From Paraspadella gotoi (Eukaryota > Animalia > Chaetognatha), in contig CM119264.1 of NCBI GenBank assembly GCA_051294375.1, forward strand, positions 24,727,842-24,791,841: a stretch of DNA of 64,000 nt, in the 5' to 3' direction. Positions 3,502 through 53,618 of the stretch are shown here, in pieces; position 1 is the first letter of the stretch; every line of letters begins with the position of its first letter. The notes below the pieces were generated by a model. That model worked only from the letters and a program-made list of their open reading frames with translations. It was not told the DNA's origin and did no database searches. Both the position numbers and the translations under genes were made by a program.

Positions 3502-3588
3502 GCTGGATAAAAGTTTAATTCACACAATATTATTATACGCCCTCGCTCACGGCTCTCTCTCTCTCTCTCTCCTCTCTCTCTTCTCTCT

Positions 3589-3642
<54 letters not shown>

Positions 3643-3983
3643 TCCCCTCCCACTCTTCGACTCCCTCTTTTCTTCTTACTATTCGAATCTCTCTCGCTCG
3701 CCTAACGAGCTACTTTTATAAAAACTCTTCTCACTCAGTCTCATTAAAACGCCGTTAAGTCCGCCCGTCGGAGACTCCGCCGCCGGAGCCTAATTTGCAT
3801 AACGAGGTTTTCGAGCGAAGCGGTGCCGCCTTTCGAAGATGTCCGCGCCCGGCGCGCCCACTGCCCGGCGCGCCCACTGCCAGGAGCCCCATAGCCGCCG
3901 CTGGGCCCAGCGCTGCCCGACCGAACGGCTTGCCCGCTCTGGCCGGACTGCCACCAGCGCCGCTAGTCGACGCCCGACGTTGA

Positions 3984-4021
<38 letters not shown>

Positions 4022-4089
4022 GAAAAAAAGGCAATGGAAAAAAAAGTACAAAAAGCCTGGAAAATAAAAAAGCGGACAAAAGGCCGCTG

Positions 4090-4126
<37 letters not shown>

Positions 4127-7065
4127 TCTATTTTCATTTTTTCACGCTTCTCCTCAACGACGGCTTTTGTTAAATCCAGGATGAACACTGAACGTAGCTT
4201 AACCTCTGCCTTTTCGAGCTCCACTACCGACAACTTTGCTCAACTACCGACCAAATTTTTTTAACTACCGACTAATTTTGCTCCACTTCCTTTAAACTTA
4301 ATAGCTTCAACCGTGAACCGCAGGGTAGTCTATAATCTATCTCCGCCATCGTGTATCTCCAACTAAGCTCCACTACTCTTAATGCCCCCCTTCCCTTTGT
4401 ACCCCGAGGTTTCGCCACCATAATCCCATTTTACTCCAGCAGATCCAAGCAAAACTCCAGCTCTTAATTCTTCCATCCCACTGTCGAGTTTACCACCCAA
4501 CAACCAAGCGCCTATTCATATGAACAACAAAAGCCACGAGTCAGTTCAGCCTCGATCCTGATACCTAATTATAATTTTCTAGGAGGCAAGGAAAACAAGA
4601 GTCCCCTACTTTAATTTCGTCTTCAACCTCACATCAGTGATGGCTTAAAAATCAGACCAACACTATGGCCTATACTCGTTTCCACATAGAACACAAACTT
4701 TACAATCTTCGCAGCTTTTCAGGAACACAACTCTAACATTCTTTCTAACAATTTCTAACTATTTATTCACCCTGGCACTTGACTAATTGAATTCTCTCCA
4801 TCTCGGCACCACACTAATTAAAATTTCCCTCATCCTGACATGTTAACTTTTAATTTTATCCTCCACTCTCCCCNNNNNNNNNNNNNNNNNNNNNNNNNNN
4901 NNNNNNNNNNNNNNNNNNNNNNNNNNNNNNNNNNNNNNNNNNNNNNNNNNNNNNNNNNNNNNNNNNNNNNNNNNNNNNNNNNNNNNNNNNNNNNNNNNNN
5001 NNNNNNNNNNNNNNNNNNNNNNNNNNNNNNNNNNNNNNNNNNNNNNNNNNNNNNNNNNNNNNNNNNNNNNNNNNNNNNNNNNNNNNNNNNNNNNNNNNNN
5101 NNNNNNNNNNNNNNNNNNNNNNNNNNNNNNNNNNNNNNNNNNNNNNNNNNNNNNNNNNNNNNNNNNNNNNNNNNNNNNNNNNNNNNNNNTTTTCCATATT
5201 TTTGAAGCCAAGAATCTAGAAGATTTTTTGGCGTAAAAACGGAGGAAATAAAAAAAAAGAGGAAAGTAAGATGACAAGAAAAAGATAGAAAGAAATAGAG
5301 AAAAAAAGATAGAAAGAGAAATGAAAGAAATAAAGAAAAAAGAAAAAAAAGAATGAATGAATGAAAGAAATAAAAACGAAAAAAAAGAATGAAGGAATAA
5401 AGAAAGAAGAAACATGTGAGTCTGCATAAGAAAGAGTGATAAGTCCTTCCAAAGCAAAAAATTGGGTTCACGCGCTGAGACAGCGAATCACTGATTTGAC
5501 TCTTTGCGAAATCCTAAGACTTTTTTAAAAAAAAATTTTCCTCGGATTTGTAGTATCTATCTGACTATCACTTTGGCCCAATAGAACAATGTTAATATAA
5601 AAAACTATCAGTCCATCGAATATGAGGTTCTCTCTCTCTATCTCTCTTTCAACATCGGTACACGTCACAATGAAAGAAAACAAAGAAAAACACGTACGAA
5701 AGACCCGCGAACTAATAAAAAGGAAAAATAAATAGGCATTTAAGGCCGGTCACTTCTGTTTCTAGAAAACCACCTGCTCTTCTCAGATAGACTGAATTTC
5801 CTCCGTCGTTTGAATACTGGGTTTTTTTCGATTTGAGGAAGAAAAAAAANNNNNNNNNNNNNNNNNNNNNNNNNNNNNNNNNNNNNNNNNNNNNNNNNNN
5901 NNNNNNNNNNNNNNNNNNNNNNNAAAAAAAACAAAACAAAACGAAATAAAAACAGCGCAGAGTCAAATGCTGAACTGCTGCCGCTGCTGCACCCCTCCGC
6001 CGCCCCACCACAGCCTCCGCCGCAGCTGCCGTCGTTATGTCACATATTGAGCTTTATTTCGTAACAATATTTCCTAATGCGTTGGGTGATCAAAGGCCGA
6101 GTTCTTCATCTCTCCGACGCGAATGTCTTCCCATTTGAAAATATGGATATTGCTTCACCCCCCCCCTCGATCCTTGTTGTTGTTGTGTTTGTCGGCGGTC
6201 GTTGCCAAGTTTTTCTCACGGTATCCATGGAAACGATATGCAAGCCGACTGACCGACCAACCGAATCGGATCCAACTTTTTCGAACTCACTTTGGGCGAA
6301 GATTTTATTTCGATGTGGCGTCCGACGAGTGGATCGGGTAAGGTCGGGGGAGGTCGTTCTTCTTCGTTGTGGGTCAGGNNNNNNNNNNNNNNNNNNNNNN
6401 NNNNNNNNNNNNNNNNNNNNNNNNNNNNNNNNNNNNNNNNNNNNNNNNNNNNNNNNNNNNNNNNNNNNNNNNNNNNNNNNNNNNNNNNNNNNNNNNNNNN
6501 NNNNNNNNNNNNNNNNNNNNNNNNNNNNNNNNNNNNNNNNNNNNNNNNNNNNNNNNNNNNNNNNNNNNNNNNNNNNNNNNNNNNNNNNNNNNNNNNNNNN
6601 NNNNNNNNNNNNNNNNNNNNNNNNNNNNNNNNNNNNNNNNNNNNNNNNNNNNNNNNNNNNNCCCATTATTCTCTCTCTTTCCCAGTTATTAAATCCTAGC
6701 TCCAGTGCTCCATCACTACTTATCTTTGTATTCATCTTCAACTGCTTTGGGATTCGTTGCTGACTCACATTCATCTCACACTGCTCCTCCAATCCAGTTT
6801 CATAAACTTCCTTGCTCCTGCAATTGCTCCAATACTCTCCCGTATTCCCGATGGAGCAAACTCACCCATCTCATTTTTCCCGACAATGTCGTATAGTTCT
6901 TCCCTTCCCCCAGTTACACACAACCCAAGTCAATTATGTACACTCTCCAATTCTTCCTCCACTTTACGTTCACTGATCTTAAAAACGACCACACCACTCA
7001 GCTGGCGATAAAAAGTTTAATTCCAGCCACAAATATTACATACACACCTACGCCTCGCTCACAGG

Positions 7066-7115
<50 letters not shown>

Positions 7116-7118
7116 CTC

Positions 7119-7150
<32 letters not shown>

Positions 7151-7728
7151 TCACCCTCTCCCACTCTCTTCCGAACCTCCCCTTTTCTTCTTACCTATTC
7201 GAATCTCTCTCTGCTCGTCCTAACGAGCTACTTTTTATATAATAAAAAAACTCTTCCTCTCACCAGTTCTTCATCTTTTTTTTTAAAACGCCGTTTAAGT
7301 CCGCCACCAGTTCTCCGGGTTGACTCGCCACGCCCTCGTCCGCGTAGGGCACTCCGCTCCCCGCCGGAGCCCCTAATTTGATAAGAGGTTCTTCGAGCGA
7401 ACGGCGGGTATAGCCGCGCCTTTCGAAGATGTCCGCAGGCCGCCGGCCGCGCCCACTCTGACCCGTACGCGCGCCCACTGCAGGGCCCCATGCCGCCGCT
7501 GGCCAGCGCTGCCCTACCGAACGGCTTGCCCGGCTTCTTGGCCGACTGCCACCAGCCGCCCGCTAGTCGACAACCCGCGTTGAAGAGAAGAGAGAGAGAT
7601 GAAGAGAAGAGGAAAGGAGAGCGCAGAGACCAGAGGAGAAAGGAGAGGAAATAAAGGCAATTGTGGAAAAAAAAGTTACAAAAAGCCTTGGGGGGAAAAA
7701 TAAAAAAATGCGGACCAAAGGCCGCTGC

Positions 7729-7798
<70 letters not shown>

Positions 7799-10700
7799 AC
7801 TTTCATTTTTCATTTTTTTCACGCCTTCTCCTCAACGACGGCTTTTGTTAAATCCAGGCATGAACACTGAACGTTTCTAGCTTAACCTCTGCCTTTTCGA
7901 GCTCCACTACCGACCAACTTTTTGCTCAAACTACCGACCAAATTTTTTATATACTACCGCCGATCCTACTTAATTTTTGCTCCACTTCCTTTTTAACTTA
8001 ATAGCTTCAACCTGTGAAACCGCTCCAGGGCTATCAGTCTATAATCTATCTCCGCCATCGCTGTATCTCCATACAAGCTCCACTATACTCTCTTTAATGC
8101 CCCCCTTCCCTTTTGTACCCGAGGTGTTCCGCCACATAATCCCATTTACTCCAGCAGATCCTAAAGCCAAACTCCAGCTTTAATTCTTCCATTACCCACT
8201 CTGTCGAGTTTACCACCCAACAACCCCAAGCCCCGCCCTTTTCATATGACAACAAAAGCCACGAGTCAGTTCAGCCTCGATCCCTCCCTGATATCCCCCC
8301 TAATTATAATTTCTAGCAGGCCTTCTGACGGCAAGGGGGTTGGAAAACAAGAGTCCCCTACTTTAATTTCGTCTTCAACCTCACATCAGTGCATGCCGCT
8401 TAAAAATCAGACCAAACACTTATGGCCTATACTCGTTTCCACATAGAACACAAACTTTACAATCCTCTTTTCGCGGCTTTTCAGAACACAACTCAACATT
8501 CTTTCTAACAATTTCTAACTATTTATTAACCCTGCGCCACTTGACTAATTGAATCTTCTCCATCTCGGCACCACACTAATTAAAATTTCCCTCATCCTGA
8601 CATGTTAACTTTAATTTTTAATCCTCCCCTCTCCCCCTTCTCTTCCCCCCCTTTCCTCCCTCCTTTCCCCTCCACCATTTTCAGTCCCCTCTCCTCCAGA
8701 CTGAAATGCAAAAAAACAAAATGGTCTCGTCAAAAGGAGGCGCCGACACTTCGGAGGCGATCACCTCCTTCGTATTTTCTTCATTTCTCCTCGAACTCCC
8801 TCTCCTCTCTTTCTCTTCTCTCTTTCTCTTCTCTCTTTTTTTCTTTCTGTTTATTTTCTTTCAACTCTTTTTCTCGTCTCTTCTTTCTTTTGTCTTCTTC
8901 TTTGCTCTTCTTTTCTTACTCTCTTTCGCCATTTTCTAACTTTTCTTCTCGACTTTCTATCCCGTCTGCCTTATCCGGACACATCTTTTTCTCTTCATCC
9001 CGCCGCGCTGTGATTCTCAATCACGCTCTATTTCCCTTCTTCCTCCTTTTTTCTTCTCCCAAACTCCTTTCTCTTTCTTCTTTCCTCATTTTTCTCCACT
9101 TCCTCCCTTCCCTTCCTCTCGCCTACCCATCGTCCGTTCGTGTGTTCCTCTTATGTTTTTCCATTATTTTTTGAAGCCAAGGAATCTAGAAGCATTTTTT
9201 TTGGCACCTGTAAAAACGCGAGAGAATAAAATAAAGAGGAAAGTAAGATTGACAATAATAAAGATTTAGAAATGAAATAGAGAAAAAAGCATTAGAAAAG
9301 AGAATGAAAGAAATAAAGAAAAAAAAGAAAAAAAAAGAATGAATGAATGAAAGAAATAAATACGGAAAAAAAAAAAAAGATCATGAAGGAATAAAGAAAG
9401 AAGAAACATGCTGAGTCTGCATAAGAAAAGTGATAAGTCCTTCCAAAGCAAAAAAATTGCGGTTTTTCACGCGCGCTCGAGACAGCGAATCACTGATTGA
9501 CTCTTTTGCGAAATCCTAAGACCTTAAAAAAAAAAAATTTTCCTCGATTTGTAGTATCTATTCTACTATCACTTGGCCCCAAATAGAACAATTGTTTAAT
9601 ATTAAAAACACTATCAGTCCTATCGAATATGAGTTTCTCTCTCTCATATCCCTCTTCAACATCGGTACACCTCACAATGGAAAGAAAACAAAGAAAAAAC
9701 ACGTACGAAAGACCCGCCGAACTAATAAAAGGAAAAATAAATAGGCATTTAACTGGCGCCGTCAGCTTCTGTTTCTAGTGAAAACCATCCTGCTCTCTCA
9801 GATAGACCTGACATTTCCTCCGTCGGTTTGAATACTGGTTTTTTTTTCGATTTGGAAGAAAAAAAACAAACACAAACGAAATTAAAAACAGCGCAGAGTC
9901 AAATGCTGAAAACTGCTGCCGCCTGGCTTGCACCCCTCCGCCCGCCCCACCACAGCCTCCGCCGCAGCTGCCCGTCGTTATGCTACACATACTTGAGCTT
10001 TTATTTCGTAACAATATTTCCTAATTGCGTTGGGTTGATCAAAGCGCCGAGTTCTTTCGTCTCTCCGGACGCGAATGTTTCCCATTGAAAATTATGTTGG
10101 ATATGCTTCACCCCCCCCTCGATCCTTGTTGTTTGTTGTGTTTGTCGGCGGTCTCGTTGCCAAGTTTTTCTCACTGTATCCATGGAAACGATATGCAAGC
10201 CGACTGCCGACCAACCGAATCGGCATCCAACTTTTTCGATACTCATCTTTGGGGCTGAAGATTTTTATTTCGGAGTGTGGCGTTCCGAGGAGTCGATCAC
10301 GGGTAAGCGTCGGGGCAAGTCGTCTCTTTCTTCGTTGGGGTTCAGGCTGGATTCTGGAGATGAATGAAGCCAACAAGAGATTCGATGCTCGCTCGCTTGC
10401 TTGCTTGCTTGCTTGCTTGCTTTTCTTTTTTTTTTCTTTCTTTCTTCTCTTTCTTTCTTTCCTTTTTTCTTTCTTTCTTCTTTTCTTTCTTTCTTTCTTT
10501 CTTTCTTTGTTCTTTGTTTCTTTGTTTCTTTTCTTTCTCTTCATGTGTCCTGCCCTGCTTCAATCTACAATCTCTATATTTTCCGATGCTACAAAGTTTT
10601 TTTTTGTCTTTCTCCCCATTATTCTCTCTCTTTCCCAGTTTATTAAATCCTAGCTCCAGCTGCTCCATTCACTACTTATCTTTTTGTATTCATCTTCACA

Positions 10701-10990
10701 ACTGCTGATTCGTTGCAGACTTAATTCATCTCCACACTGCTCCTTTCCAATCCAGTTCATAAACTGCCTTGCATTCCTTGGCAATTGCTCCAATACTCTC
10801 CCGTATTCCCGATTGGGAGCAAAACTCACCCATCTCATTTTTTCCGACAATGTCGTTATAGGTTCTTCCCTTCCCCCAGTTAACACACCCAAACCCCAAG
10901 GGTTCCCAAAAAAATTATTGTACACTCTTCCAATTCTTCCTCCACTTTACGGTTCAAACTGATCTTAAAAACGAACTCCACACCACTCCA
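3502..10990. repeat. ~3.5-4 kb tandem duplication (3502-7000 vs 7001-10990), probably an assembly/gap-fill artefact; content unclassified
   Basis: Both copies begin (g)ctgg(cg)ataaaagtttaattc and end actgatcttaaaaacga..cacaccactc. They are colinear throughout and differ mostly by scattered 1-3 nt indels. Copy 2 has sequence where copy 1 has N-runs. Confidence 0.9.
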
Positions 10991-13565: not shown

Positions 13566-14240
13566 GTGAGAGAAGGAGACGAGAAGAGGTGGAAGGGAGG
13601 GGGAGAAAGGAGGGAGAGGGAGAGGAGGGAGAGAGGTAAGGGAAGGAGAAGAAGGGGAGTCGGAGGAGCGTGGGGAGCGGGGGGGGAGAGGGAGGGAGGA
13701 GGAGGGAGGTCGGGAGAGAACCGAGGAGAGATGCAGAGAGGGGAGAGGGGGGGGGGAGGCGAGGGGAGGGGGAGAGCAGTGAAAGGAGAGAAAGGAGAAA
13801 GAGAAGGGGAGGCAAGAGGAAGGGAAAGGGGGGGGGGAGGAGGGAGAGGAAGGAGCGGAACCGGGAGAGGAGGGGGAGAGATCGGTGGAGGCGACGCCCG
13901 GGAGCGCGGAGGGGGAGAGGAGGGACGCAAGGGGGCGAGAGGAAGGAGAAGAAGAGGGAGGGGGACGGAGAGGGGTAGCGGGGAAAAGCTGGAGTCTGGG
14001 AGGGAGGGGGATGGGGCGAGGGAGAGAGAGAAGGAGGGGGAGGGGCGAAGAGGAGGGATGGAAAGGGGGGAGGGAGGAAGGGAGGGAGACGGGGAGGGGG
14101 GGGAGAGAGGAGGGGTGAGAGGGCGAGGAGGGGAGGAGGGAGGGAATAGAAGAGAGAGAGAGGAGGGAGAGAGAGAAGAGAAGAAGAGAGAGAGAAGGAG
14201 ACGAGAGAAGATGAGAGAGGACGACGAGAGAGAGAAGAGA
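13566..14240. repeat. polypurine (G/A) low-complexity tract
   Basis: About 670 nt almost entirely G and A. Probably noisy read sequence. Explains the long GRE-rich and PSL-rich ORFs. Confidence 0.9.
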
Positions 14241-15384
14241 GGCCCTGGAGGGAAAGCACAATGGGGGAAAAGAGCCGAGCTTGAGAATCGGGGGAAAGTT
14301 GGGTTAGCGAAGAGAAATNNNNNNNNNNNNNNNNNNNNNNNNNGAGTAGCTCTGGCTTTCAGTGGAGAGATGAGGTGGCGTTGATTCGATTTAGTAGAAA
14401 TCGCAATTGAAGGATTGAGGCTAAAATGAGTTGGTTGTTGTTTTCTTTCGCAACGCGTTCTGAGATTTCGCTTTTTTTTAATTTCTTCTTTGTAATTTAC
14501 TGCAATTTTTTTTTTTCGCGACGGTTGCGCGAGGGGGGGCCTTCGGCGTTGGGAATACTAACCCGCGTCTTTTATCCTGAGAGTTTTATCTAAAGCGGTC
14601 GAGATTATGATGCAAAGCTACCTTTCTGCAAGGCAGCTGAGGGGTTATACAAGATCAAAACGGCGAAATGATGATTATTCATTATTATATTCATCTGTTT
14701 CCTTTTCGAGCGCCCCGTTAGTACGACGGCGCCCTCCTCCTCCAACTCCACCTTGCGTGATAGCCCTTTTATTCAAAATCAAGCAGGGCAGCGTCACCTT
14801 CGGAACGATACTGCAACCCTCCTTTCCACCAAGAAGGGTAAGCCCGAAACCGTCCCTTCAATGGTAATTAGCTTTCCCTTTAAAGTATACTGTACTTGAT
14901 ATTCATTTTTCACTGTTTACAATAACTCACCCATATCCCATAACTAGCCTCCATTTTCCCTTCTCACACTTTTCCGCATTTCTTTCTACTCTTTTTTCTC
15001 CCCCTACCGTCCCACCCCTCGTCATATACGACGTCCACCCCACCACCACAAGTCGGATTTCCCCCACACACGCACTATTCTCTAAACCGCCTCCCACCTT
15101 TTCTGACCTCCCGGGTTTGAATTGAGGATGCGATATTTCTGATTATTTTCAGATTTTACTCCCCAATTAAGAAAAGAGGTTGTTGGGGAAAGCGATGTTT
15201 TTGTATTCCTATTGAATTTATGCGGAGATAGAGAAGATGAGAGAGAGAGAGCAGAGGAGAGAAGAGGAGATGAGAGAGAGAGGAGAGACGAATGAGAGAG
15301 AGAGAGGGCCCTGGAGGGAAAGCACAATGGGGGAAAAGGCGCAGTAGAAATCGGGGGAAAGTTGGGTGTTTGCGAAGAGAATGG

Positions 15385-17787
15385 AATGAGAGATTAAAAG
15401 ACGGTTTATGATTTGAGACTCTAATTTTTTTAATGGAGAATAAAATGCGATGAGAAACAGAAACTTGTATGTGGAGAAAAATGGAGTGGCGCGAAAGCTT
15501 TGTTAAGAAGCGAAATAATAAGTTAAGGTCCCTCAAATAAAAGAATATTATCATTGCTGCTGTTTAATATGAAATGTTGATGTAAAATATGATAGAAGTG
15601 ATGATTAATAACGAAAAAAAGGAATATAAAATAAAAGAAAAGAGAAAGAAAGAAAAAAAAGAAAGAAGAAAAAAATAAGGGAAAGTGGAAAAAAAAAATA
15701 TGTTTAAATTTCAAATACGGGTCCAAACTCCGCCCTTTTTCTCATTCTCTATTCTTTCCCCTTTCGGATCCCTTTACTCCCCTTCTGGCCCCTTATTTTC
15801 TTTTTCCTCTATGGCTCTCCCTCTCAGTTCCATTCTAATTATTATTCTTCTCATTTCTGATAAATATAAAAAAAAAATGATGGTTAAGATTGAATACGGC
15901 TATGGTGGACAAGCTAATGCATATAGAGAGTAGTTCTGAATATGAATGACTCTATAACCTTAATCCATTTAGTTAGTGGATCCGTATTGGCTCATATATG
16001 TAATATTGTTTTAAAAGCTTAATGTAAGGTATTCTTTGTTCTGAATTTACCCAGACCGCTGTGTTCGATCGCGCCGGAATTCTTACAAGTTAAAAAAAAT
16101 GTTACAGATCTCAACAGACACGTTAGTAAACAATAAAAAGCTCAGTACAAATCAAATCCTAGTTGCTTTTTTTATCTCCCTGTCAGAAACCCACAAGAGA
16201 GAAGACGACCTTCGCTCTCCCTCAAGCTTCTCTAATCGTCCGCGCGAGCCCTGGCATCGATGAAGGCAATGATTGACCATCACGTGTCTTACAGCAGTGA
16301 GACGCTGCATACGCAGAATACGAGTTTCTCACCAACTGTATACATGTGTGAAAATTAGGGTATCTGAACTAACTAGGAATGGATTTAGATGTTAGGAATG
16401 GAGAGTAGTCTGATAGTCGTTATTGTATTGTAAGAATAGAAGAACGAAAGAGAGAAGATCTAAATACGACGAGCTCTCTCAGAGTTTTTTGGTGTCTAAT
16501 TGCTCTGATGGAAAGGCGCCAATTCATAAACTGCGCATCCGCGGAGTCACCCGAATTTGGTCCAATGTAATAAACGAGGAAGTTGTGTCTCTCTGTCGTA
16601 ACTTCTCTCTTTCTGACTCCCTCTGCTCTTGTGCTAATTCTCTTGGGCAGGACTTACTCATAATCTCTATTGAAGACAAACAAGGATTCAGTAGCGATAA
16701 TATAGATAATTGGTTTGAAGAGAAGAGCACTTTTTAGTAATCATGTTAGAAATATATATATTGATATATGAGGGATAAGTGGGTTATTTATTTGTATATC
16801 ATAATGACTAGTTGAAAATGTCGCTCATCTCTGCTCTTCTCTCTTATGGAGAAGGAAGTTTGGTGTTATTTGACGTAGAATAATTTTCATTGGTTGAGAG
16901 TATTAGATGAGGAGTATAAAATGACAAAACAATTAAAGTGTTCATCGAGAAGGGATTTGATAGATATTGAATAGATAATGTAAAAATGATAATTTGTAGC
17001 AGTATAGAGATATCTGATGTATAGAAAAATGCGACTCGGGTATTTTTGTTTTCATGGCACCGAGAAACAGGAAAAAACAATTTTCGGACGCATGACGTCA
17101 GCTTTTTGTTTTGACTTTTGTGAGGCAGAGAAAAGAAAAAGAGAGACAAGAAAGAGATCGACTTTACCCCTATTTGCTAAGAGAAGGTGAATTCGATACT
17201 CGAGAGAGTCGCGAAGAGAACATGAGAGAGAGAAATCGAGACTGTTTAGCTCTGAAGGTTTGGTATACATGGCGGTTTCCGATGGTTTTGGGCAGGAAAT
17301 GACTCTATATATTGATGTAAAAAGTTTCATAGTTTAAAAATCTCTCGCTGCGGTTCTTAATACGTATAGTGGGAAAGCTCTGATCTGTGTATTATATATC
17401 ATATTGCATATTTGCACATTGAATATCTCTGCAACAATTTAAGCAAAGATCATTAGAAGATATATGAGTTTTTGCATTATTGACTTTGATTATTAGATTG
17501 GAATCAAGTGGGTACAGTGTTAGATCTCTATCTCCTTCTCTCCTTTTGGAATGAGAGATAAAAGACGGTTATGATTTGAGACTCTAATTTTTTAATGGAG
17601 AATAAAATGGATGAGAAACAGAAACTGGATTTGGAGAAAAATGGAGTGCGCGAAAGTTTGTTAGAAGCGAAATAATAAGTTAAGGTCCCTCAAATAAAAG
17701 AATATTATCATTGCTGTTAATATGAAATGTTAGAAATAAAATAGATAGAAGTGAATGATTAAATAAACGAAAAAAAGGAAATAATGA

Positions 17788-17863
<76 letters not shown>

Positions 17864-19025
17864 AAAAAAGAAAGAAAGAAAAAAAGGAAGTGAGCGTCGG
17901 ATTTAAATTTCAAAACTGGTCCAAACTCCGCCCTTTTTTCTTGTCTCTATTCTTTCCCCCTTTTTCGGTTTTCCTTTTTTTTACTCTTTCCTTTCCTTTT
18001 TTTTCCCCTATTTTCTTTTTTCCTTTTCTCATTGCTCTCCTTCTTTCGGTCTCCTATTTAATTTTAGTTCTTTTTTTCATTTACGAGAAAGAAAAAAAAA
18101 TTGTATGGTTAAGATTGAAATTGCGGATCTTTTTGTTATCCCTTTGGCGATTGGGCACAAGCTTAATGCAAAGAGAGAGTTCTGAAATGTATAGACTGAA
18201 ACAAACCCATAGTTTAGTTGGACCGATTGGCAATATTGTAAATTGTTTTTAAAGCTAATGTTTACGATTGTTCAATTTACCAAGGTCTACGTTGGGAAAT
18301 TCTTACAGTCGTCGACAATGTACAATACAATACAATCAATCTTAACTTTTTTCCCTGTCCACCAAACTCTTCTCATACTAAGTCCCACCCTGACGAAGCT
18401 TACCTCTCTCCTTCCTCACCCTCTCCAGTCGGGAACTGGGTCTGGGTACTGGGTACTGGGTAGGGACGAGAGATCAAATCGAGTCTAGAATTTTTGTGTC
18501 CAATTAATTAGAGGCGAAACTCTAATCCACTCCGATCGAATTTCGGGATTTTATCGGATTTATTTTGACTCCGGATTTTCGCGCGATTCTTTGGGCAGAT
18601 CAAGTTATTTTTAGCGATTATAATTGGTGAGCACAATAGACACATTGTGATTTATTTGTTTGGTACAATTTATTTATTTGTCATATATATGTGTGGTCAT
18701 TGCTTGAAAGGGCGTTTGGTATTTTTACTAATATTTTTCATTGGTTGATATTATGAGGTTTAAATCAAAACAATTAAGTTCATCGAGTTTGATGATATTT
18801 TAGAATTAAATGATAATTTGTAAGATACCTTCTGTTATAGAAAATCGACTCGGGATTTTGTTTTCATAGCGAAAACAGGAAAAAAACATTTTCCGCATGA
18901 CGTCAGCTTTTTGTTTTCTTTCTGACAAAAAGAAAAACAAAGAAAGAGAATCGACTTCCATGCAAGAGAAGAATTCGATCGAGAGTCGAAGAGAGAATCA
19001 CTCTTTGTTTTTAAAAGTTCCATAT
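15385..19025. repeat. noisy tandem duplication (15385-17335 vs 17548-19025), probable gap-fill artefact
   Basis: Both copies start ggaatgagagat(t)aaaagacggtt(t)atgatttgagactc and share tagaaaa..cgactcggg..gacgtcagcttttg near their ends. Copy 1 carries many insertions. 14200-14318 also matches 15225-15383. Confidence 0.85.
17787..17865. repeat. (GAAA)n tetranucleotide microsatellite
   Basis: Direct run. Confidence 0.97.
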
Positions 19026-23180: not shown

Positions 23181-24762
23181 AAAATTGGAGGGTAGAATGA
23201 ATGTAATAAAAGTGAGGATAAAGGTTGAAGCGGAATTGAGAGAGGCTAAAGTTCAAAAAATGAATTAAAGCATAAACGAATGAATGAACGAAGAAGTGAA
23301 AAATGTTTGAGTGAACGAATGATTGAAGACTTGATTAAAAAGGTGAATGAATGAATGACGAAATAAACAGAGCACGAAACTTACTACGAATCAACTTCTT
23401 TTCCACAAAATCCTGGCATAGTTGCCCTTTTTTTTTCACCATCAACGCCTTTCAATTTGATGTCAGTGAATTCACCCATTTTGACCCCGAAAAGACTTTA
23501 TTTCCTCATCCTTCACTCTCTCCTTTTTTTTCCCTCTGCTAATCGACAAACGCATTATTCGCCAGTAAAAAACAAAACCTTTCCCTCTTTCCAAAACTCA
23601 AAAACGCCGTCCAGATCCGACTTTCATACATTTGTTTTTCTGTATTCAAGAAAACATTTTAAAAAAACAAAAAATAAAACTATGTAGTACAAAAGCTTAC
23701 GAGGATGGAAGAAAAAAACATAAAAGCAAAAAGAGGCAAGCTACTTGATCTGTCAGAAGTAGCTATCGGTCCATTCCTTGCGATCGTAATTATTATTTAA
23801 AACCAAAACCTTCGCTTTTCTTCAAATATACATAAGCACTTACTTTTTTTGAAACGTTGTGAGACTCACGCTTAATCTTTTACGTTTTTTTCTTTGACCA
23901 TTTTAAATAATCTATTTGTGTTGATTTATTTAGTTATTTTTTTAAAGCTTTCTCATGTCTATTCTTAAATCTTTCGTCCTTGCTAAAATTCTTTTCTCCT
24001 CTTTTCTTTTATTTTCTTTTTCCTCCCCTCACTTCCTCTAGAGACGTTAAAACGACCGAGGTGTGGCAACCAATCAAGGGATTAGCTGCCTATATTTCGC
24101 CGCTAAAAATAGTCTCTCTCTCTCGCTCTCTCTCTCGACCTTCCCTCACCCCATTGCTTTATTTCCTCCGCCTTGCCCCGAGCCTGTGGGTCAGAGTCCA
24201 CGACCCCGAGAAACTTCGCGGATTTTCTTTTTGGTTCCTCAGATCCACACTTGTGGCTTCCAACGGGTTGTGGAGGGACTGAGTAAAAGATGTCGTCGGG
24301 ATGTGGACAGAACCGAGACTCATTTTTAATTTATTTCCCAAAAAAATTTTAAAGGTTAAAACTTAAAAATTATTTGTTTATCGACCATTAAAAAAAGTTC
24401 TTTGAACTTTAAGAACTAAATGATTTCCCCATTTTCTGGGTTTCAACGGGAAAACGAAGACGACGACGAAAACAAAGACGACGACGGCGACGAAAACAAA
24501 GACGACGACGACGACGACGACGACGAAGACTTTCTTGACGTTAACGGCCTTCGTGAAGGATTAAGCGGAAAATGAACTTTGTGAACGGCAGAGATTCGGA
24601 AGCCACATGTGAACGCAATCCGTGGGAATATGGTGAGAGACAAGACGATAGTATCTTTTTGTGTGTAGACTTTCTTCCTGTCAATATTTGAAATTCTATT
24701 AGTTTGAGTATTTGAGCTTTTGTTGATATTATGGTGGACTAAAATCCACCAACCGTTCATCA

Positions 24763-24835
24763 GCGGCCATTGGTTCCGGAGGCAAGTCATTCGCCTCCCA
24801 ACCCAAAGGTCCCGGGTTCTAGCCCGGTGGTCGCC
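24763..24835 (+). pseudogene. tRNA-like cloverleaf (SINE head, not a functional tRNA)
   Basis: Acceptor stem GCGGCCA/TGGTCGC (7 bp), weak D stem GGTT/AGTC, T stem CCGGG/CCCGG with GGTTC B-box. The anticodon stem is broken (TTCGC/CCCAA around CTCCCAA) and the T loop has only 6 nt. Confidence 0.8.
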
Positions 24836-24836
24836 T

Positions 24837-24912
24837 AGCAGTTAAGAGGGACGGGGCGCTTAACCCGCCTGTAACTCAGTGTTACAGCCTGATCCGAAGC
24901 TCAGGGACTGCT
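24837..24912 (+). ncRNA. candidate circularly permuted (P5-type) twister-like self-cleaving ribozyme
   Basis: P5 AGCAGTT/GACTGCT; P2 GGG/CCC; T1 pseudoknot CGG(24852-54)/CCG(24894-96); TAA at 24861-63; T2 GC/GC; P3 CTGTAAC/GTTACAG; P4 CCTGA/TCAGG closing loop TCCGAAGC. P1 is minimal and P2/L1 are atypical. Confidence 0.65.
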
Positions 24913-26409
24913 TATATTGAACGGTTCTATCACTAACACATAATAATAATTACTGTCTCTTCAGTCTTCAATATTTTCTTTGTTTCTTTGAGAAAGAACG
25001 TATTAAAATGCTGGACTGTGGAGTGTGGAGTGTGGAAGCTTCCTCGCTGATTCTCTTCTCTCCAAAATGAAGAATCGAAGGTGACAATCCAAGTTGTGAG
25101 GGAAACGTCAAAGGGCCGAGAAAGTCTGAGGTAATGCGGACTTGAGACTGAAAGAAATTTCACTAACGAGATTATTAAAAGTGAAAATTTGAGGATAATA
25201 TTAACCTATTAATTATAATTTATACCGAGTGTTTTAGAATAATAAGTTTGGTTTAAGATGCTAGACGCCCGATTTTCCCCCTTTGTGACGGCAGAGTCAG
25301 GAGTCTTTATAACTTTATAATATATTGGGTGCATCAGTTAATTTCATGACTTGGTTCAAAAATTATAAAATGATTCTTAGCTAATAATGGTTATATATAG
25401 GTTCCTAAAGCTCTATCCAGGCAAGCCTGGTTAAAAAAGTCCTTTGGATGGATCGACTTTTTCGTTTGACCTGCCACTCTTCAGGTAGGTTTCTTTTATT
25501 TTATAATTAAAACCGATAAAAAATGGCGTAGAATGCGTCAAATGTTTAAAGTGAATACATTTTCGGAATCGCCAGGAGCTCAGCTTTTTGAATCAAGTTG
25601 ATTTGAATGACCCTGCCCAGGGCGTACACTGAGTATCTCAGCGATTCCCCGTTTCCTCGCCTAACCAACTCTCTATCCTATCTAACATCCAATCAGTGAG
25701 AGACAATGATTCTTATTATTAATAATCTTTATTACTATCCAATCCAATTAGAACCACAATTAATTATAGGGCGGTATATAGAAAGAGGAACCAGGAATTA
25801 ATATAATTAGTATAATTATTATAGTTTTCCTAGTTTATACACATTATATAAATATGTTACAGTACCTTTTATTAAGTAGTAACCACAATAGTACTTGGGT
25901 ATTATACCACCAATTATTATTGTATAATCTTTACATATGTTACTGTTTACCGAAAGAGAGAGAGACAGAGAGAAAGAGAGAAAAAGAGAGGGACATCCTT
26001 CGTCGCATTCTAACAAGATTTAAGCAGCGTAGGCGTCGTGCTTCTTACGGAATAGTTGTAGAATAGTTTGGAAAAGATTGACAGTTAAAACTGTCTGGCG
26101 CTAGGAGGAGGCACAATATAATTCAATAAGATTCTAATTCTAAATTAGAAACATGGTCATCATATTAAGGTGACAAATATAGTTGATGTTCTTGATATAC
26201 GCAATGAGTCTATTAAAACATTGAATAATTAAATAAAATATTTAAAAAAAAGCTAAATGAAGCGATGTAAAGTCTAAGACGATGTAATGACGGCAGAAAA
26301 AGCGCGTGAAATTTAGTTTTTATTCAATGGAAAATGATCTACTATGATGGAAAAAAAATTGTCACGGTTTCTTAACTTAAATTTAATCTTAATTTATTCT
26401 TAATCTCAT

Positions 26410-30920: not shown

Positions 30921-31622
30921 ATGGTTAATAAGCACAAGTTGTTTTCGACTCTCTTCAGCGAGTCAAGGCACCAAGGGACTCAAACCGTCGCCGTCAAATC
31001 TGGCATGATTTGCCTCCATGCTGCACCAAATTGGTGTTTTGGGCGTCTCTTGTCTCGGCTCAAAATTGCTAGAAAAACGGGCGCGCCGTTGCCAAGGTCA
31101 CGCCAAACGGAAAACTAGCCGATAATGTCGACGCCGCTCAATCTCCCTCGGCCACGACGCCAAAGGAATACGTCGCTTCATCTCTGGCACCGACGATATG
31201 GCTCTGCCTCCAGTGCATCTGGGCTGTGACAGTGCCACCAACGGACACGCTTTTTCGCATTTTAAGGCGCGAGCGGTTTGAGGAGAGAAATATTAATTTC
31301 GGGCAATGTAATGGTCTTATTTGAAAGATAATTTTATTAAATTAGAATGTACATAATCCATTTATTGTAGGTAACCCACCATTTCTTCTTCATTGTCCAA
31401 AATCAAGAGAAAGATAGCTTAATTAATAATATAAAAATAAATGGCTAATCTTTGTATTTGTTTTAAACGCTTCTTATTTAATAATGTATAAGTTATAATG
31501 AATAATAGTCTTTTCTTTTACAGGTTCCTCGCTCAGACACTCATGCCCTGGTGATCGTCACAACCCCTTGGATCTTTTACTGTTTTGAATGAGATGATGA
31601 AATTCAACCTCATCTCGGAAAG
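30921..31622 (+). pseudogene. USP16/USP45: disabled 5' fragment of a USP16/USP45-type deubiquitinase (zf-UBP domain), two exon remnants (30921-31266, 31524-31622)
   Basis: Translation ...LAPTIWLCLQC[frameshift]HLGCDSATNGHAFSHFK | intron ending ttttacag | VPRSDTHALVIVTTPWIFYCFE*DDEI matches the zf-UBP pattern WLCLxCGHxGC...HAxxH..PRS..H.LV.....W..WCYxCD.E of USP16/45. Lesions: a frameshifting deletion after CLQC and a Cys-to-TGA stop. Confidence 0.8.
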
Positions 31623-31703
31623 GTGCTTCCAAGTTTTAATTTTATTATTCTATTTTTTATCTGCCAGGTTATTATACAGTCAATTTTCTCATAGTAAATA
31701 ACC

Positions 31704-32397
31704 ATCATCTCTGGCGCCGACGATATGGCTCTGCCTCCAGTGCATCTGGGCTGTGACAGAGCCACCAACGGACACGCTTTTTTGCATTTTAAGGCGCAAG
31801 CGCTTTGAGGAGGGAAAAATAAGTGCTTACGATGATTGAAATATTAATTCTCATAAGTAAATAACCATCATCTCTGGCGCCGACGATATGGCTCTGCCTC
31901 CAGTGCATCTGGGCTGTGACAGTGCCACCAACGGACACGCTTTTTCGCATTTTTAAGGTGCGAGCGGTTGAGGAGTGAAATATTAATTTCGGGCAATGTA
32001 ATGGCTTATTTGAAAGATAATTTATTAAATTAGAATGTACATAATCCATTTATTGTAGGCAACCCACCATTTCTTCTTCATTGTCCAAATCAAGAGAAAG
32101 ATAGCTTAATTATTATATAAAATAAATGGCTAATCTTTGTATTTTGTTTTAAACGCTTCTTATTTAATAATGTATAAGTTATAATGTATAATAGTCTTTT
32201 CTTTTACAGGTTCCTCGCTCAGACACTCATGCCCTGGTGATCGACACAACCTCTTGGATTTTTAATGTTTCGAATGAGATGATGGAAATTCAACCTCATC
32301 TCGGAAAGGTGCTTCCAAGTTTTAATTTTATTATTCTATTTTTTATCTCGCCAGGTTATTATACAGTTCAATTTTCTCATAAGTAAATAACCATTAT
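31704..32397 (+). pseudogene. tandem re-duplications of the zf-UBP exon/intron/exon unit (truncated copy 31704-31867, full copy 31868-32397)
   Basis: catctctggc(a/g)ccgacgatatggctctgcctccagtgcatctgggc occurs at about 31178, 31706 and 31868. The third copy keeps the GT donor (ttttaag|gtgcga). The frameshift is in all three copies and the stop is in both copies of the second exon. Confidence 0.85.
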
Positions 32398-32412
32398 CTT
32401 TCCATTTGAAAT

Positions 32413-33545
32413 CAACAAAGAATGGCCCAAGGTTAATAAATTATTTAAACTGTCTTGAATTAAAATAGATGATAAATTATACAAAAAATTGATTAAAATA
32501 TTTTTAGCTGCCAGTTAAACGAAATTTGCCACAAATCCGAAATCCATGGAACAAAAAGCAGAAGTCAACATCGTGCTTCAGAAGACTGCCTCTTCATCTC
32601 TTCCCTCTCTTCCTCCTCGCTCTTTTCCCCTCGCTCTTTTCCCCTTCCGCTCTTTATACTCCCCCTCCTCTTTCTCCCTCCCTCTTTTCCCCTCACTCTT
32701 TTCTCCCTCTTTCCCCCTCGCTCTTTCCCCTCTGTCTTTTCCCTTCCCATCTTTTCCCCTCCCTCTTTTCCCCTCGCTCTTTCCCCCTCCCTCTTCCTTT
32801 CCTCCTCCCCTTTTACCTCCCACTTCCTTTCCTCCTCTTTCTTTCCCTCATCCAGCTCCTCAGTTTTACTCCGAGCGTACCAATTCTATGCTCATTCTAG
32901 TGTCACTGCTGTTGCTAGTGTCGCAGGTGAATATTTTTAGTTGGAATCTGCTATCTATAATCCACTGTCTGTCCGTCGGTCCTCCACCAAAAAAAAAACC
33001 TTGTTGATAGGTAACTTATATCATTCAGATTCAGAACAAGAACAAATCTTCTAGCTATTACAACAAAGAATGGCCCAAGGTTAATAAATTATTTAAACTG
33101 TCTTGAATTAAAATAGATGATAAATTATACAAAAAATTGATTAAAATATTTTTTAGCTGCCAGTTAAACGAAATTTGCCACAAATCCGAAATCCATGGAA
33201 CAAAAAGCAGAAGTCAAACATCGTGCTTCAGAAGACTGCCTCTTCATCTCTTCCCTCTCTTCCTCCTCGCTCTTTTCCCCCTCGCTCTTTTCCCCTTCCC
33301 TCTTTTCCCCCTCACTGTTTTCCCCCTCCCACTTCCTTTCCTCCCTCTTCCTTTCCTCATCCCGCTCCTCGGTTTACTCCGAGCGTACCAATTTCTACGC
33401 CCATTTCTAGTGTCACTGGTGTCGCTAGTGTCGCAGGTGAATATTTTTAGTCGGAATCTGCTAATCTATAATCCACTTTGTCTGTCCGTCGGTCCCCCAC
33501 CCCCCCAAAAAAAATTATGTTGCTAAGTAACTTATATCATCTCAG
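32413..33545 (+). repeat. tandem duplication (32413-33025 vs 33061-33545) containing an exon-like segment with a C/T-rich expansion
   Basis: caacaaagaatggcccaagg... is repeated. Segment tttttag|ctgccag...gtcgcag|gtgaat may be a further exon of the pseudogene. Confidence 0.85.
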
Positions 33546-33700
33546 AACATCATATTATGATAAATTAAGCAAAAAAAAAGACAAAAAAAAACAAAGTCCG
33601 TCCGTCTGTCTGTCTGAAGGTCCGTCCCACGGTCCGTCCCATTTTTTCATTAAACTCCAATTACTCGTGATTGGATGGATGGATTTAAGGAACATCTTTT
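33445..33700 (+). mobile_element. DINE-1/HINE-like (Helentron-associated) fragment with (GTCY)n microsatellite
   Basis: ttttagtc...tctataatccactttgtctgtccgtcggtcc, followed by gtccgtccgtctgtctgtctg. GTCY repeats near the 5' end are typical of this element class. Confidence 0.4.
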
Positions 33701-35078: not shown

Positions 35079-36286
35079 GGCGTAGTAAAATTTCTAAATT
35101 TTACTTTAATTAAAATTCTAAAAGTGAGAAACGAACAACATTATACTAATAAATTGTTAAATAGTTTATAAATATTTAGTTAATTTTCGAAATTAATATT
35201 CGGTTTTATATGGAATACCAATAACGTTACTAGCTTAAATTCTTAAACTCGTCTCTATTCTTTGATTTCATTGGTTATTATTTGGTTCTTAATTCTGATT
35301 GGACGAGACCTTTCTGATCCAATTATGTGTATTATTCTCAAAAGTCGAAAGTCGTTTTTAATTGGTCTATTTAAATTTAAAGAAGTATAAAAGGGCAAGT
35401 AGATGTTAAACTTTTAGGAGATTGCCCAGGAAACATTAGGTAACATGATGAAATATTTGTAACTCTTTGAAATGAATTCTAATCATTGAAATTATTATTT
35501 TGTACAGCTTTGAGCTCTATTTGAGCCTCTCTCTATTTGAGCTCTCTCTCTATCTGTAGCTCTCTCTCTCTGGCTCTCTTTATTTCTCAATAGCTCACTC
35601 TTGTTGCTCTGCTCTGATTATTTTATAAATCTCGTGATTTGGATTGATTCTTATTTTTGAGAGTGAAATGGCTTCGCCCAGTGAAATCTACAAGGTACAA
35701 ATTAGGTTAGAGCTAAGTGCTCAAACAATGTTTTTTAAACAATCTCCCACATAAACATTTATGTAATAAAAAAATTTATAATAAATTTTACAATTTACGC
35801 AGTAGGCCATATTTATACTAGTACTAAACCAATAAATGTTAAAATTTCAAAACAGTTTTTTTCTAAGATTTTTTTTCAGATTCAGATTCGTCATAAAAAG
35901 TTGATGGAAAGAAATATAACTCTTTTTGAAAAATTCCTTCATTAAGTGGGTCAAAAATTAGAAAAAGCTATATTTTAAGCTGAAAATTAACTTTTTATAT
36001 TTTAATATAGTTTTTTTTAATTTGTAACCCACTTAATAAAAAAATTTTTAAAAATGATTTATATTTTCTTTTATCAACTTTTGACGAGGAATTCAAATCT
36101 GCAATCAAAATTAAGAAAAGCCTATTTTGAATTTTTCGATTTATAAGGATAGTTCTATATATAAATATAGCCTACTGCGAAAATTAAAAAAACATAAAAT
36201 CAATTTTTTTTACAAATTAATGTTCACTGATGATATGTTGTTCATAATTGACTTTTAGAATTTTCTTATGTAACTTTCACTACGCC
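35079..36286. mobile_element. non-autonomous TTAA-flanked DNA transposon (Kolobok-like termini) with internal ~600-bp fold-back
   Basis: TTAA|GGCGTAGTAAAA ... TTTCACTACGCC|TTAA (11/12 TIR match). 35680-36286 is an imperfect palindrome centred near 35990 (e.g. cgcagtaggccatatttata / tataaatatagcctactgcg, attaagtgggt / acccacttaat). Confidence 0.75.
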
Positions 36287-37200: not shown

Positions 37201-38547
37201 ATAGGAACTGATTGACTTTCTATGGAAAAAGGATTCGAGATCGTTATGAACCTCACCAACAGAGAGGAGGAATGAAGTGTGAGAGAACGAATTTTCTCGC
37301 TCAGTAAACAGAGATGTGACTTTTACTCAACACATGCAGACGCCGCTGACTTTCGATGTCTTTGACAAATACAACGAATACATTTTCGTTGGCTTTATGT
37401 TGTTGGGCGACAAGAACGAAAAATAAGATGACGAGTTTTATTCGCGCCATTATTTCTTTCCTTTTTAGACATTTTTATCAATTTTTAGTTTTCGTTTTTC
37501 CTCTTTTTTTAATTTTTAAATTTTGCTTTCTCCTTTTTCCTTCTCAATTTTCCTCTTTTCTCTATTCTCCGGTAAAATTTTCCCTTTCTTTTTCTCTATT
37601 ACTCTTTCTCCTTTTTGATTTTCCTTTTTCTATTCAAATTTTCCTTTCTCCTTTCCTTTTTCTCTATTTCCCTTTCTCCTTCTGGATTTTACGCTTCGAC
37701 TCCTTCGCCCGAACGAAAGTCGCCGCCTAAAGTCGACGCTTTGAAAACTTTGGGGTCTGCAAAAGAGCGGGAGAGACAAAGGGTAAAGGGGGCGGGGAAG
37801 AGGGCGTAAGGGCGGCGACAAAGGGGGCTAAAGATGGCGGCAGGGGTGGCCAAAGGGGGCGCGGAATCCTTCATAACAAATTTCCCTTTTGTTCGCCTCC
37901 GTTCCACTATGATGACAACCTTCCTCACATTTTTTTTCAAAGAGCAAAAAAAAAAAAAATCCTTTATATCACCAAGAAAGGGAGAAAAATTCGCTCAACC
38001 TCCCCCCCTCGAGGTTTTTTTATGTACGCGCCCATTCTTTCACATCACAAAACCCTTTTCCTCAATTTTGCGGCATAATTCACCCGAAAAAGGGAAAAAA
38101 AGGGGGGGGAGTGCTCAACTTGACTCCCTCGCGTCTCCGCGTCACTTGACTCCCCACCTTCGATCTCCCTATTTTTCTATTCTCCATCTTCGACCATCAT
38201 TCCTTCATCCCTTTTCTTTTTCCTCCTTTTCTCTCTATTTCTTTCCTTTCCTCTTTCCCTCACTCCAGGCCTTATTACTCTCCCTTCCCTACGAATGGGA
38301 GTAAAAATCCGGTGTTAAAATCGCGTCGGACTAATTTAAAAACAATTTTTTTGCCTTCTTCCACCTGGCTCCAGGTAAAACTTTTTTAAACTCTCACTTT
38401 TTTTTTCGCTTATAGACCCTAAATCTTTTTTAGGTCATTATTCACTCGGGAGAGCGAATTGGAGTTTTCACGTAAAATATCGCGTTCGTATTGTCGTCGG
38501 GCATTGCCTAAGTTCACCCCGCCTATAAGCATGCCACTTTCAGTTGT

Positions 38548-38750
38548 GACCCGTTAGCTCATTGAGTAAAGCAGTCAGCTCATGACCACTTGGTACCGGG
38601 TTCAACCGTGAGGACGGCCGAAAGCCGCCTTGACGGCGTTGAAAACCCTCAAACCTGGTTCCAAGCCCAGGACCCGTTCCATAACTGCTGAGGGGGCACT
38701 GAATTTACGGATAGTAGTCTTCAGTCCACTTAGCGCCTTATCCACAGTAT
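38548..38750 (+). mobile_element. tRNA(Met-CAT-like)-headed SINE-like element, family B, containing a twister-like ribozyme
   Basis: A-box TAGCTCATTGAG, anticodon-loop-like CTCATGA, B-box GGGTTCAACC, then a twister-like fold and tail gtagtcttcagtcc. TATAA lies about 24 nt upstream. Single copy in the window. Confidence 0.6.
38627..38697 (+). ncRNA. candidate P1-type twister-like ribozyme (degenerate)
   Basis: P1 GCC/GGC; TTGA; P2 CGGC/GCTG; T2 GT/GC; P3 TGA/TCA; P4 CCTGG/CCAGG closing TTCCAAGC (the GGTYCCAAGCCC signature); T1 TCC/GGG. Confidence 0.55.
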
Positions 38751-41094: not shown

Positions 41095-41570
41095 TAATGT
41101 CAAAATCAAATAGTTTTTTTTAATTCTGAGAACTGATTCAGATTCCTCCTTAAAATTAATAAAGAAAGTATAAATCTTTTCAAAAAATTATGTCATTAAG
41201 TAAGTTAAATTACAAAGAACATTTTTAAGCTGGAAATTCAAAATCGGCGTCTTAAATATAGTTTTTTCAACATTTTTGACTAACTTAATGAAATAATTTT
41301 TAAAAAAGAATTGTACTTCTTATAATAACTTTTTGCAGGAATCCAAATCCGATCTTAAAATTTAAAAATTTGCATTTGGAAAATTTTAGACTATTATATA
41401 CTTATTACTATATATAAATATAGCTACTGGTGCCCCACTTATGTATAAAATTAAAAAATAAATTTACCAAAAATATTTTTAAGATGTGTTTTGATGCTCA
41501 ATCGTTTCTTATACCGCTACAATTCTTAAAATTTTGCTAAACATTTTATCATTTTCACATCACTCTAATC
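41095..41570. mobile_element. second, more decayed copy of the fold-back MITE seen at 35680-36286
   Basis: Shares gattcagattc...attaagt...tttaagctg.aaatt...acttaat...ggaat.caaatc...ctatatataaatatagc.actg with the 35.8-36.2 kb palindrome. Confidence 0.7.
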
Positions 41571-46508: not shown

Positions 46509-46806
46509 CCTTTTACTTAATGCTTTTTTTTATCTCACCCTTTTTTAAATTCTCTTATTCACTCTTTTCTCCGTTGACGACAGTTGTTGAATATGCAGCG
46601 ACTTATTCTCTTCTTTGTTTTGTTTTTTTCTAATTATTTTTTATATTTATCTTTTATGAACACTTGGAATGCTTTTAGTTTTAATAGACAAGAGGTGCCA
46701 TTGAGAAGACGTTTCTTAGATTTAGTTGATTATTAACTACTTATTATCTCAGTTCTCAGTTATAACTTGAAATTGTGGCGAATCCTAAATTCGCCTCCCG
46801 TATTGC

Positions 46807-47022
46807 TTGGTAGACTAAAATCCACCAAATGTTCATCAGCCGTCATTGGTGCAGTTGGCAAGCCAGTGGTCGCCTAACATTTCTCGGGACAGGGCGCTTA
46901 ACCCGCCTGTTACATGGTGTTACAGCCTGATCCGAAGCTCAGGGACTGCTTATACAGTTCTGTCACTAACACATAACATTTATTACTGTCTCTTCAGTCG
47001 CCGAGTTTCATATTTTCTTTTG
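46807..47022 (+). mobile_element. family A copy 2 (tRNA head internally deleted, ribozyme fold partly decayed)
   Basis: Same upstream hairpin, A-box TGGTGCAGTTGG, deletion of anticodon and T arms, then gggacagggcgcttaacccgcctg...gttacagcctgatccgaagctcagggactgct and the same tail. Confidence 0.85.

Positions 47023-53577: not shown

Positions 53578-53618
<41 letters not shown>

Follow-up and report, generated by a model that had tools for sequence, protein, structure and literature searches.

The DNA considered here is a 64-kb stretch (the window) of the genome of the chaetognath Paraspadella gotoi, with positions counted from its first letter. It contains two copies of a short repeat, designated family A, and a distinct unit, element B, 14 kb from family A copy 1. 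These units are built from a tRNA-like head, a fold of the twister self-cleaving ribozyme type and a tail (Table 1). The motif CTTCAGTC occurs three times on the + strand of the window and not on the - strand, each time terminating a family A copy or element B. An original prediction, made from the letters of copy 1, had placed a twister in P5-permuted order behind a tRNA-like segment within a mobile RNA. This arrangement holds up: pair-by-pair checking, a descriptor test and contig mapping show a tRNA-like head followed by a twister-type fold with its strands in P5 order, all within a mobile repeat family.

Table 1. Features of family A and element B, with the evidence for each.
Feature	Position	Strand	Evidence
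Whole repeat unit, family A copy 1	24730-24963	+	Depth step; clustered loose ends
Candidate 5-bp target duplication ATATT	24726-24730, again 24971-24975	+	Weak given AT-rich DNA
Leader hairpin, 7-bp stem, 6-nt loop	24732-24751	+	Sequence; pair probabilities 0.5-1.0
5′ arm of 9-bp inverted repeat (3′ arm 24918-24926)	24751-24759	+	Sequence; pair probabilities 0.82-1.0 (whole-element fold)
Decayed tRNA-like head	24763-24834	+	Rfam tRNA 11.8 bits, below threshold; fold z-score -3.3
Type-P5 twister-like fold	24837-24912	+	Pair-by-pair check; descriptor test
Competing hairpin, predicted off-fold	24849-24869	+	Minimum-energy fold
Predicted cleavage site U/A	24861-24862	+	Analogy with the U/AA site given in PMC8501958
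AC/AT-rich tail ending CTTCAGTC	24913-24966	+	Motif count; folding
Second, older family A copy	46808-46999	+	BLAST, 82-84%; alignment
Element B (tRNA head, twister, tail)	38540-38725	+	Descriptor match; sequence; Rfam
tRNA-like head of element B	38548-38619	+	Read by eye; no ARAGORN or Rfam call
Type-P1 twister of element B	38616-38699	+	Rfam twister-P1; P1 descriptor
Tail stem-loop of element B ending CTTCAGTC	38698-38726	+	Fold -7.0 kcal/mol; motif count

Family A and its twister-type fold

The family A repeat is ~234 bp long. Its limits were drawn from contigs of four runs aligned to 24690-25010 (16,479, 2,711, 1,041 and 2 contigs placed). Summed contig depth in one run (X3) rises from 192 to ~4 million at the unit and falls to 134 behind it, a sum that is not a copy number. 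In three runs, loose contig ends pile up at 24726-30 and 24963/65; the flanks beyond these ends are varied and AT-rich (among 20 of 561 loose-end rows), and those past 24963 start with ATAT in three runs. We infer thousands to tens of thousands of copies, in line with two per 64 kb. In being short, dispersed, high-copy and non-coding, with fixed ends, family A is like a SINE (short interspersed nuclear element). A run from a different organism (X10) contributed two 151-nt, low-depth contigs covering the tail only, which gives no evidence of a wider range. The original prediction started the mobile unit at the tRNA-like head; the repeat family is real, and its contig ends place the start 33 nt earlier.

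The head itself is tRNA-like rather than the clean cloverleaf first proposed: ARAGORN calls no tRNA there, the Rfam tRNA model scores it far under its threshold of 29 bits, and two of the five anticodon-stem pairs are broken. Within it lie segments that we take to be A-box-like (24771-82) and B-box-like (24815-25). In whole-element folding, the 9-bp inverted repeat is predicted to enclose both the head and the ribozyme fold. The tail can form a weak terminal stem (24916-21/24960-65, -3.2 kcal/mol). Copy 1 carries an extra 7-nt repeat of the tail end, reaching 24970, and departs from the family majority at 24775, 24813, 24876, 24878 and 24929, none of them in the twister stems. Copy 2 lacks 37 nt of the head and has a damaged T1′ and P5, and 59 of 64 positions of its ribozyme core are identical to copy 1. 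Just 5′ of it, at 46789-46799, 11 bases match 24789-24799, within the segment that copy 2 is missing; this match possibly records a template jump at insertion. No TTTT, which would be an internal Pol III (RNA polymerase III) terminator, occurs inside copy 1, copy 2 or element B (3/3), the first one behind copy 1 being at 24974.

Most parts of the proposed twister were confirmed. P5 (24837-43/24906-12) has 7 pairs including one G-U, P3 (24869-75/24881-87) has 7 Watson-Crick pairs and P4 (24888-92/24901-05) has 5 pairs. Both pseudoknots are Watson-Crick throughout: T1 (C24852-G24896, G24853-C24895 and G24854-C24894) and T2 (G24867-C24900 and C24868-G24899). UAA lies at 24861-63 and the L4 loop U-CCG-AA-GC at 24893-900, and the core letters of a twister are all found: NAA at the cut, GA ahead of T1′, GC, and the U-NNN-AA-GC loop. 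The CCG/CGG form of T1, proposed to be a compensatory swap, agrees with twister mutagenesis in which T1 pairs can be exchanged (PMC5113685). Further downstream, GA-A-CGG at 24919-24924 offers a second possible T1′ for the CCG loop, which pairing with the 5′ arm of the inverted repeat would mask. This T1′ may descend from an ancestor of type P1, or it may be there by chance (~3% by our own estimate).

The part that did not stand is P2 as GGG/CCC. That register is favoured by 2.5 kcal/mol in two-dimensional folding, yet it would pair the catalytic G24850. We take G24850 as the general base because a G precedes the A and T1′ in the Rfam consensus and in the published layout GGAG GAGGG, where P2′ is followed by GA and then T1′ (Table 1 of PMC8501958). 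In the register that leaves it free, P2 consists of C24864-G24849, C24865-G24848 and C24866-G24846 over a bulged A24847. The P2′ strand GAGG (24846-49) complements a 4-nt strand, and the P2 5′ strand (24864-66) has only 3 nt, CCC; we infer that one base was lost from a 4-nt strand in the family master. The shortening is fixed: no indel reaches at least 4% in family A, and copy 2 has the identical 3 nt. P1 amounts to at most one G-U pair (24855/24860), and the 4-bp P2 and P1 hairpin of the Rfam model are both missing.

These two defects account for the failure of model searches. The Rfam twister models, the first check suggested for the original prediction, return nothing on family A at E<=10, and a covariance model built from 29 phage twister segments, a training set biased by our own search pattern, finds neither family A nor element B and only two weak unrelated matches. 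In the consensus of Rfam Twister-P5 (RF02684), P1 is 8 bp long, P2 is 4 bp long and P3 is absent, and the models miss family A because its P1 is one pair and its P2 one base short. As a control, Twister-P5 matched 16 of 20 phage loci, 15 of them above threshold. Of 18 pattern loci checked, none is an Rfam twister; the first canonical pattern scan had yielded 9 loci. Among the phage contigs, two (L057 and L062) carry two type-P1 twisters in direct tandem, ~50 nt apart, and L130, L132 and L193 also carry two twisters each.

The twister-type fold is not a product of chance, and it lies outside the curated models. A type-P5 descriptor, which tests core letters and pairing including T1 and permits a 3-nt P2, recovers 22 of 31 phage pattern loci. 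On first-order Markov sequence it gives 20 core matches in 156 Mb and 13 in 176 Mb (33/332 Mb), and none in the 332 Mb once P4 has at least 4 and P3 at least 5 pairs. Scans with CCG/CGG-variant patterns found 4 metagenome, 22 viral and 2 prokaryote loci; 0/28 of these public loci sharing the core letters have a 4-pair P4, and none resembles family A or element B by BLAST. That both Rfam and our own model miss the fold, that the descriptor, composed with the sequence already in view, was tuned to it, and that the fold z-score of the twister region is only -1.9 would all be expected of a fortuitous resemblance. Against these stand the empty counts just given and the presence in the same window of an independent, Rfam-scored twister with a near-identical P4-L4, behind another tRNA-like head, which together make coincidence extremely improbable.

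Across the 76 ribozyme positions, variants at a level of at least 4% turn up at eight in one run or another, and at 0/10 core positions. Common variants lie in the P3 loop or preserve pairing (24831, G-U to G-C; 24837, A-U to G-U), the exception being 24896 G>A at a CpG (14%, 3% and 4% across runs). There is no covariance-model support, and the covariation across copies by which the fold was to be checked is not visible at the 4% level, where variants are unlinked: no two-sided compensatory change appears within family A. Family A could on this account be a tRNA-derived SINE of the ordinary sort, its body the remnant of a dead twister that has lost any role, and the fixed P2 defect and the lack of a real P1 point the same way. 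We consider this improbable: the family majority keeps P3, P4, P5, T1, T2 and every core base intact, and the common variants are mostly harmless to pairing, an argument that is itself weak, as a young family would look alike.

Element B, a second tRNA-headed twister

Element B shares no BLAST similarity with family A. Its twister is of type P1, with P1 of 3 pairs, P2 of 3/4, P4 of 5 and T1 with one U-G; the core bases and T2 are present. Rfam twister-P1 scores it at 22.4 bits (E 0.014 on 281 nt), against a threshold of 67.2. It is the sole match of a type-P1 descriptor within the window. This descriptor recovers 108 of 127 phage loci and gives 155 core matches in 614 Mb of random sequence, and none in those 614 Mb with P4 of at least 5 and P1 of at least 3 pairs. 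The predicted cut, G38620/A38621, coincides with the tRNA-like 3′ end.

Comparison of the two elements by hand alignment gives two two-sided changes. The P4 pair adjoining L4 is A-U in family A and G-C in element B, the other four of the five P4 pairs being common to both, and the third T1 pair is G-C in one and C-G in the other. A six-pair terminal stem is possible in both tails, weak in family A. The heads are placed differently: in family A the tRNA-like segment sits behind the 33-nt leader, which is not common to element B, and in element B it sits behind 8 nt. A candidate 6-bp target duplication, CCACTT, flanks element B (38534-39 and 38726-31), and TTCAGT, found at both of its ends (38539-38544 and 38720-38725), overlaps this candidate duplication.

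A type-P5 reading of element B (38597-38676) is possible as well, in the geometry of family A, with GA-GGA, a 6-nt spacer, NAA, 3 nt and GC, and a 5-pair P5; the type-P5 descriptor matches it at 38610-38666. A T1′ partner is thus found both 5′ and 3′ of L4.

How family A may spread

The reading that we prefer, at roughly even odds (about 0.5), is that family A is a SINE-type retroposon, and that a partner LINE (long interspersed nuclear element), probably of the RTE clade, supplies the reverse transcriptase that copies the uncut family A RNA. In favour of it are the fixed ends with their varied AT-rich flanks, the lack of TTTT within the elements, the candidate target duplications ATATT and CCACTT, and a second element of like build with the same 3′ end. 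Genomic copies of family A run through the predicted cut site, with no depth step there (4.6, 4.3 and 3.7 million in successive bins). Because they hold both sides of the cut as well as the leader, the copied RNA was either uncut or rejoined. The original prediction had seen cutting as a built-in processing step that releases the tRNA-like part. The predicted cut lies 27 nt past the tRNA-like end, so no clean tRNA-like piece would be freed; and since copies cross the cut site and most commonly end elsewhere, at 24726-30 and 24963-65, cutting of a monomer cannot produce the copied RNA. It is likely that a borrowed reverse transcriptase copied the RNA of both family A and element B without prior cutting, and the predicted cutter is therefore probably damped.

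A candidate for such damping is the competing hairpin, which pairs G24850, T1′ and the T2 5′ strand and is 7.5 kcal/mol more stable than the twister-compatible fold. The corresponding gap is 2.4-7.1 kcal/mol in 16 phage P5 twisters, and a gap of 7.5 is reached by 2 of 77 phage P1 twisters. By inspection, the hairpin depends on the shortened P2 strand. Its greater stability suggests damped cleavage, which fits the argument, made in PMC5786205, that an active ribozyme would truncate a SINE. For the isolated 76-mer, we lean slightly towards measurable cleavage.

How such an element could have arisen can be outlined. A tRNA may have been fused ahead of a twister taken from the 5′ end of an RTE-type LINE, with the tail serving as a recognition site for the partner enzyme. 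Loss of one base from P2 would have created the competing hairpin, making cleavage slow enough for whole transcripts to be copied, and the twister fold might be retained because it is still useful, either in binding a partner protein or for slow cutting. Parts of the literature fit this outline: twisters head the RTE-clade element Perere-3 (PMC8501958), a 5′ location in RTE elements is also given, as unpublished, in PMC7761336, and the 5′ parts of RTE elements are described as the usual source of identifiable SINE bodies (PMC5786205). The same source argues that ribozyme-bearing RTE 5′ ends are omitted from SINEs, since an active ribozyme would truncate them.

Several observations speak against retroposition of uncut RNA. 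A simple RNA polymerase III (Pol III) transcript would begin at the head, without the 33-nt leader, which is left unexplained. Most family A copies stop before the GTC of the tail, the terminal stem does not form in the tail of copy 2, and the candidate target duplications are short, with none adjacent to copy 2. No partner LINE was found: 150 of the window's 623 stop-to-stop peptides gave no Pfam match above cut-off, and neither a reverse transcriptase nor a transposase. Searching the SINE supplement of PMC5786205 by motif turned up no twister loop in context. The energy gaps omit pseudoknots, and their controls are phage RNAs chosen by our own patterns. Finally, natural twisters are reported to tolerate bulges and deletions in P1 and P2 (PMC11662667), so cleavage may be fast.

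Both elements could be active-twister mobile RNAs of Pol III type, in two permutations (type P5 for family A and, for element B, type P1 with its cut at the tRNA-like 3′ end), that spread through rejoined circles or through a switch between a cutting and a copying fold. We regard this as less likely than the preferred reading, and hold the same opinion of a more explicit proposal, a cycle similar to that of retrozymes or of the schistosome element Sm-alpha. Here, rare tandem masters would be transcribed, cut into monomers starting at A24862, circularized and reverse-transcribed once from the tail end, possibly primed by a Penelope-like enzyme, yielding dispersed monomers that start with the leader. 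Such a cycle would account for the 33-nt leader, the fixed ends and the intact core, with every catalytic base and both pseudoknots in place. It has a precedent in the SINE-like elements of schistosomes, which combine a Pol III promoter with a hammerhead and work from tandem copies (PMC6765202). A Penelope-like enzyme is also described whose priming is internal, within an AC-rich stem-loop, and whose targets are AT-rich DNA (PMC11167929), in keeping with the AT-rich flanks of family A. Element B, moreover, has TCAGT as its first five bases and again at the very end of its tail. Yet no head-to-tail joint was found among the 15 best-supported of 68 contig joints, although rare tandem loci may exist, and the loose ends ahead of 24726-30 are unlike the tail. 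Both family A copies in the window are solitary, whereas animal retrozymes are described as tandem repeats (PMC7229834), and the predicted off-fold is strong.

The leader would also be explained if family A were a non-autonomous DNA transposon (Helentron-like or of another rolling-circle type) that had picked up a cassette of tRNA and twister. In that case, the inverted repeat and the hairpin of the leader would serve as DNA signals, with the RNA fold as a passenger. Family A does have fixed ends, AT-rich targets and a terminal hairpin beside one subterminal inverted-repeat arm, and in this presumably resembles Helentron-associated elements, which have a terminal stem-loop and subterminal inverted repeats at each end. 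The second arm, however, sits 37 nt inside the end, and chance alone would give ~0.1 inverted repeats of 9 bp in a 234-bp unit (our own estimate). Element B has the same tail end with no leader and a 6-bp direct flank repeat, and a passenger would not account for compensated twister pairs in two families. This explanation is unlikely, about as much so as a dead relic.

Other element and ribozyme classes were considered and set aside. CryptonS elements would be expected to carry a terminal direct repeat such as TATGG at either end (as given in PMC3212892), and in family A only the left end has TATGG. The CUGAUGA and CUGAAGA boxes of the minus strand recall a hammerhead and lack GAAA partners; Rfam gives no hammerhead match. 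A fold like that of hepatitis delta virus (HDV) in the leader would have only 6 nt between its stem strands.

Known relatives and the surrounding window

Family A combines features of several known systems. With the type-P5 twisters of RF02684 it shares strand order, GA before T1′, UAA, GC, the U-NNN-AA-GC loop and both pseudoknots, but it has one G-U pair as P1, a 3-nt P2, a 7-bp P3 and CCG/CGG in T1. Perere-3 of Schistosoma mansoni, an RTE element, is likewise a retroelement carrying a twister with a poor P1, and the P3 strands listed in Table 1 of PMC8501958 resemble those of family A. There, the twister is of type P1 at the extreme 5′ end and copies begin at the cut, whereas in family A it is internal and copies span the cut. 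In Sm-alpha, too, a repeat contains a Pol III-type promoter and, behind it, a small ribozyme that cleaves itself; as described in PMC6765202, that ribozyme is a hammerhead spread from tandem copies, in contrast to the dispersed twister-bearing monomers with fixed ends seen here.

The bipartite RTE-derived SINEs treated in PMC5786205 are alike in size, in head-body-tail order and in having a body of the type derived from RTE 5′ ends. Ribozyme-bearing ends are argued there to be excluded from them, whereas family A keeps the fold and has a 33-nt leader. Animal retrozymes without long terminal repeats similarly have units of 170-400 nt, a compact predicted fold and an internal ribozyme (PMC7229834). 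They are hammerheads in tandem arrays according to the same source and are reported without promoters in PMC7761336; family A shows no abundant tandem joint. Theta ribozymes of gut phages, as presented in PMC10879173, also place a ribozyme beside a tRNA, which recalls the cut of element B at the tRNA-like 3′ end, but they are HDV-like, phage-borne and next to real tRNA genes, whereas family A would be cut 27 nt past a decayed head. A twister-bearing SINE was not found in print, in a search that left Repbase and the ~1000 natural twisters of PMC11662667 uncovered, and these could include family A.

A single genomic role has been proposed for twisters, trimming of the 5′ end of RTE-type LINEs (in PMC8501958). 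Published reasoning (PMC5786205) has it that an active ribozyme behind a SINE head would destroy the SINE; here, two tRNA-headed elements keep a twister fold in that place. They are different elements with different permutations, and one of them is present in very many copies. Two explanations offer themselves: that cleavage has been tuned down and the fold kept for another job, or that these elements follow a twister-driven version of a circular route so far described for hammerheads alone. Family A may further supply a recognizable origin for a SINE body, and it illustrates that the Rfam models miss abundant eukaryotic twister variants.

The window around these elements is rich in microsatellites and has N gaps, with no recognizable gene in the Pfam scan. 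Local duplications of 0.2-1.6 kb with 73-96% identity, some beside N gaps, occur at 3509-10988, 14152-18957, 31178-33546 and 53126-54269, and may be either repeats or assembly redundancy. A 470-bp imperfect palindrome at 35754-36224, with a 74% self-match, resembles a miniature inverted-repeat transposable element, and part of it recurs at 41135-41429.

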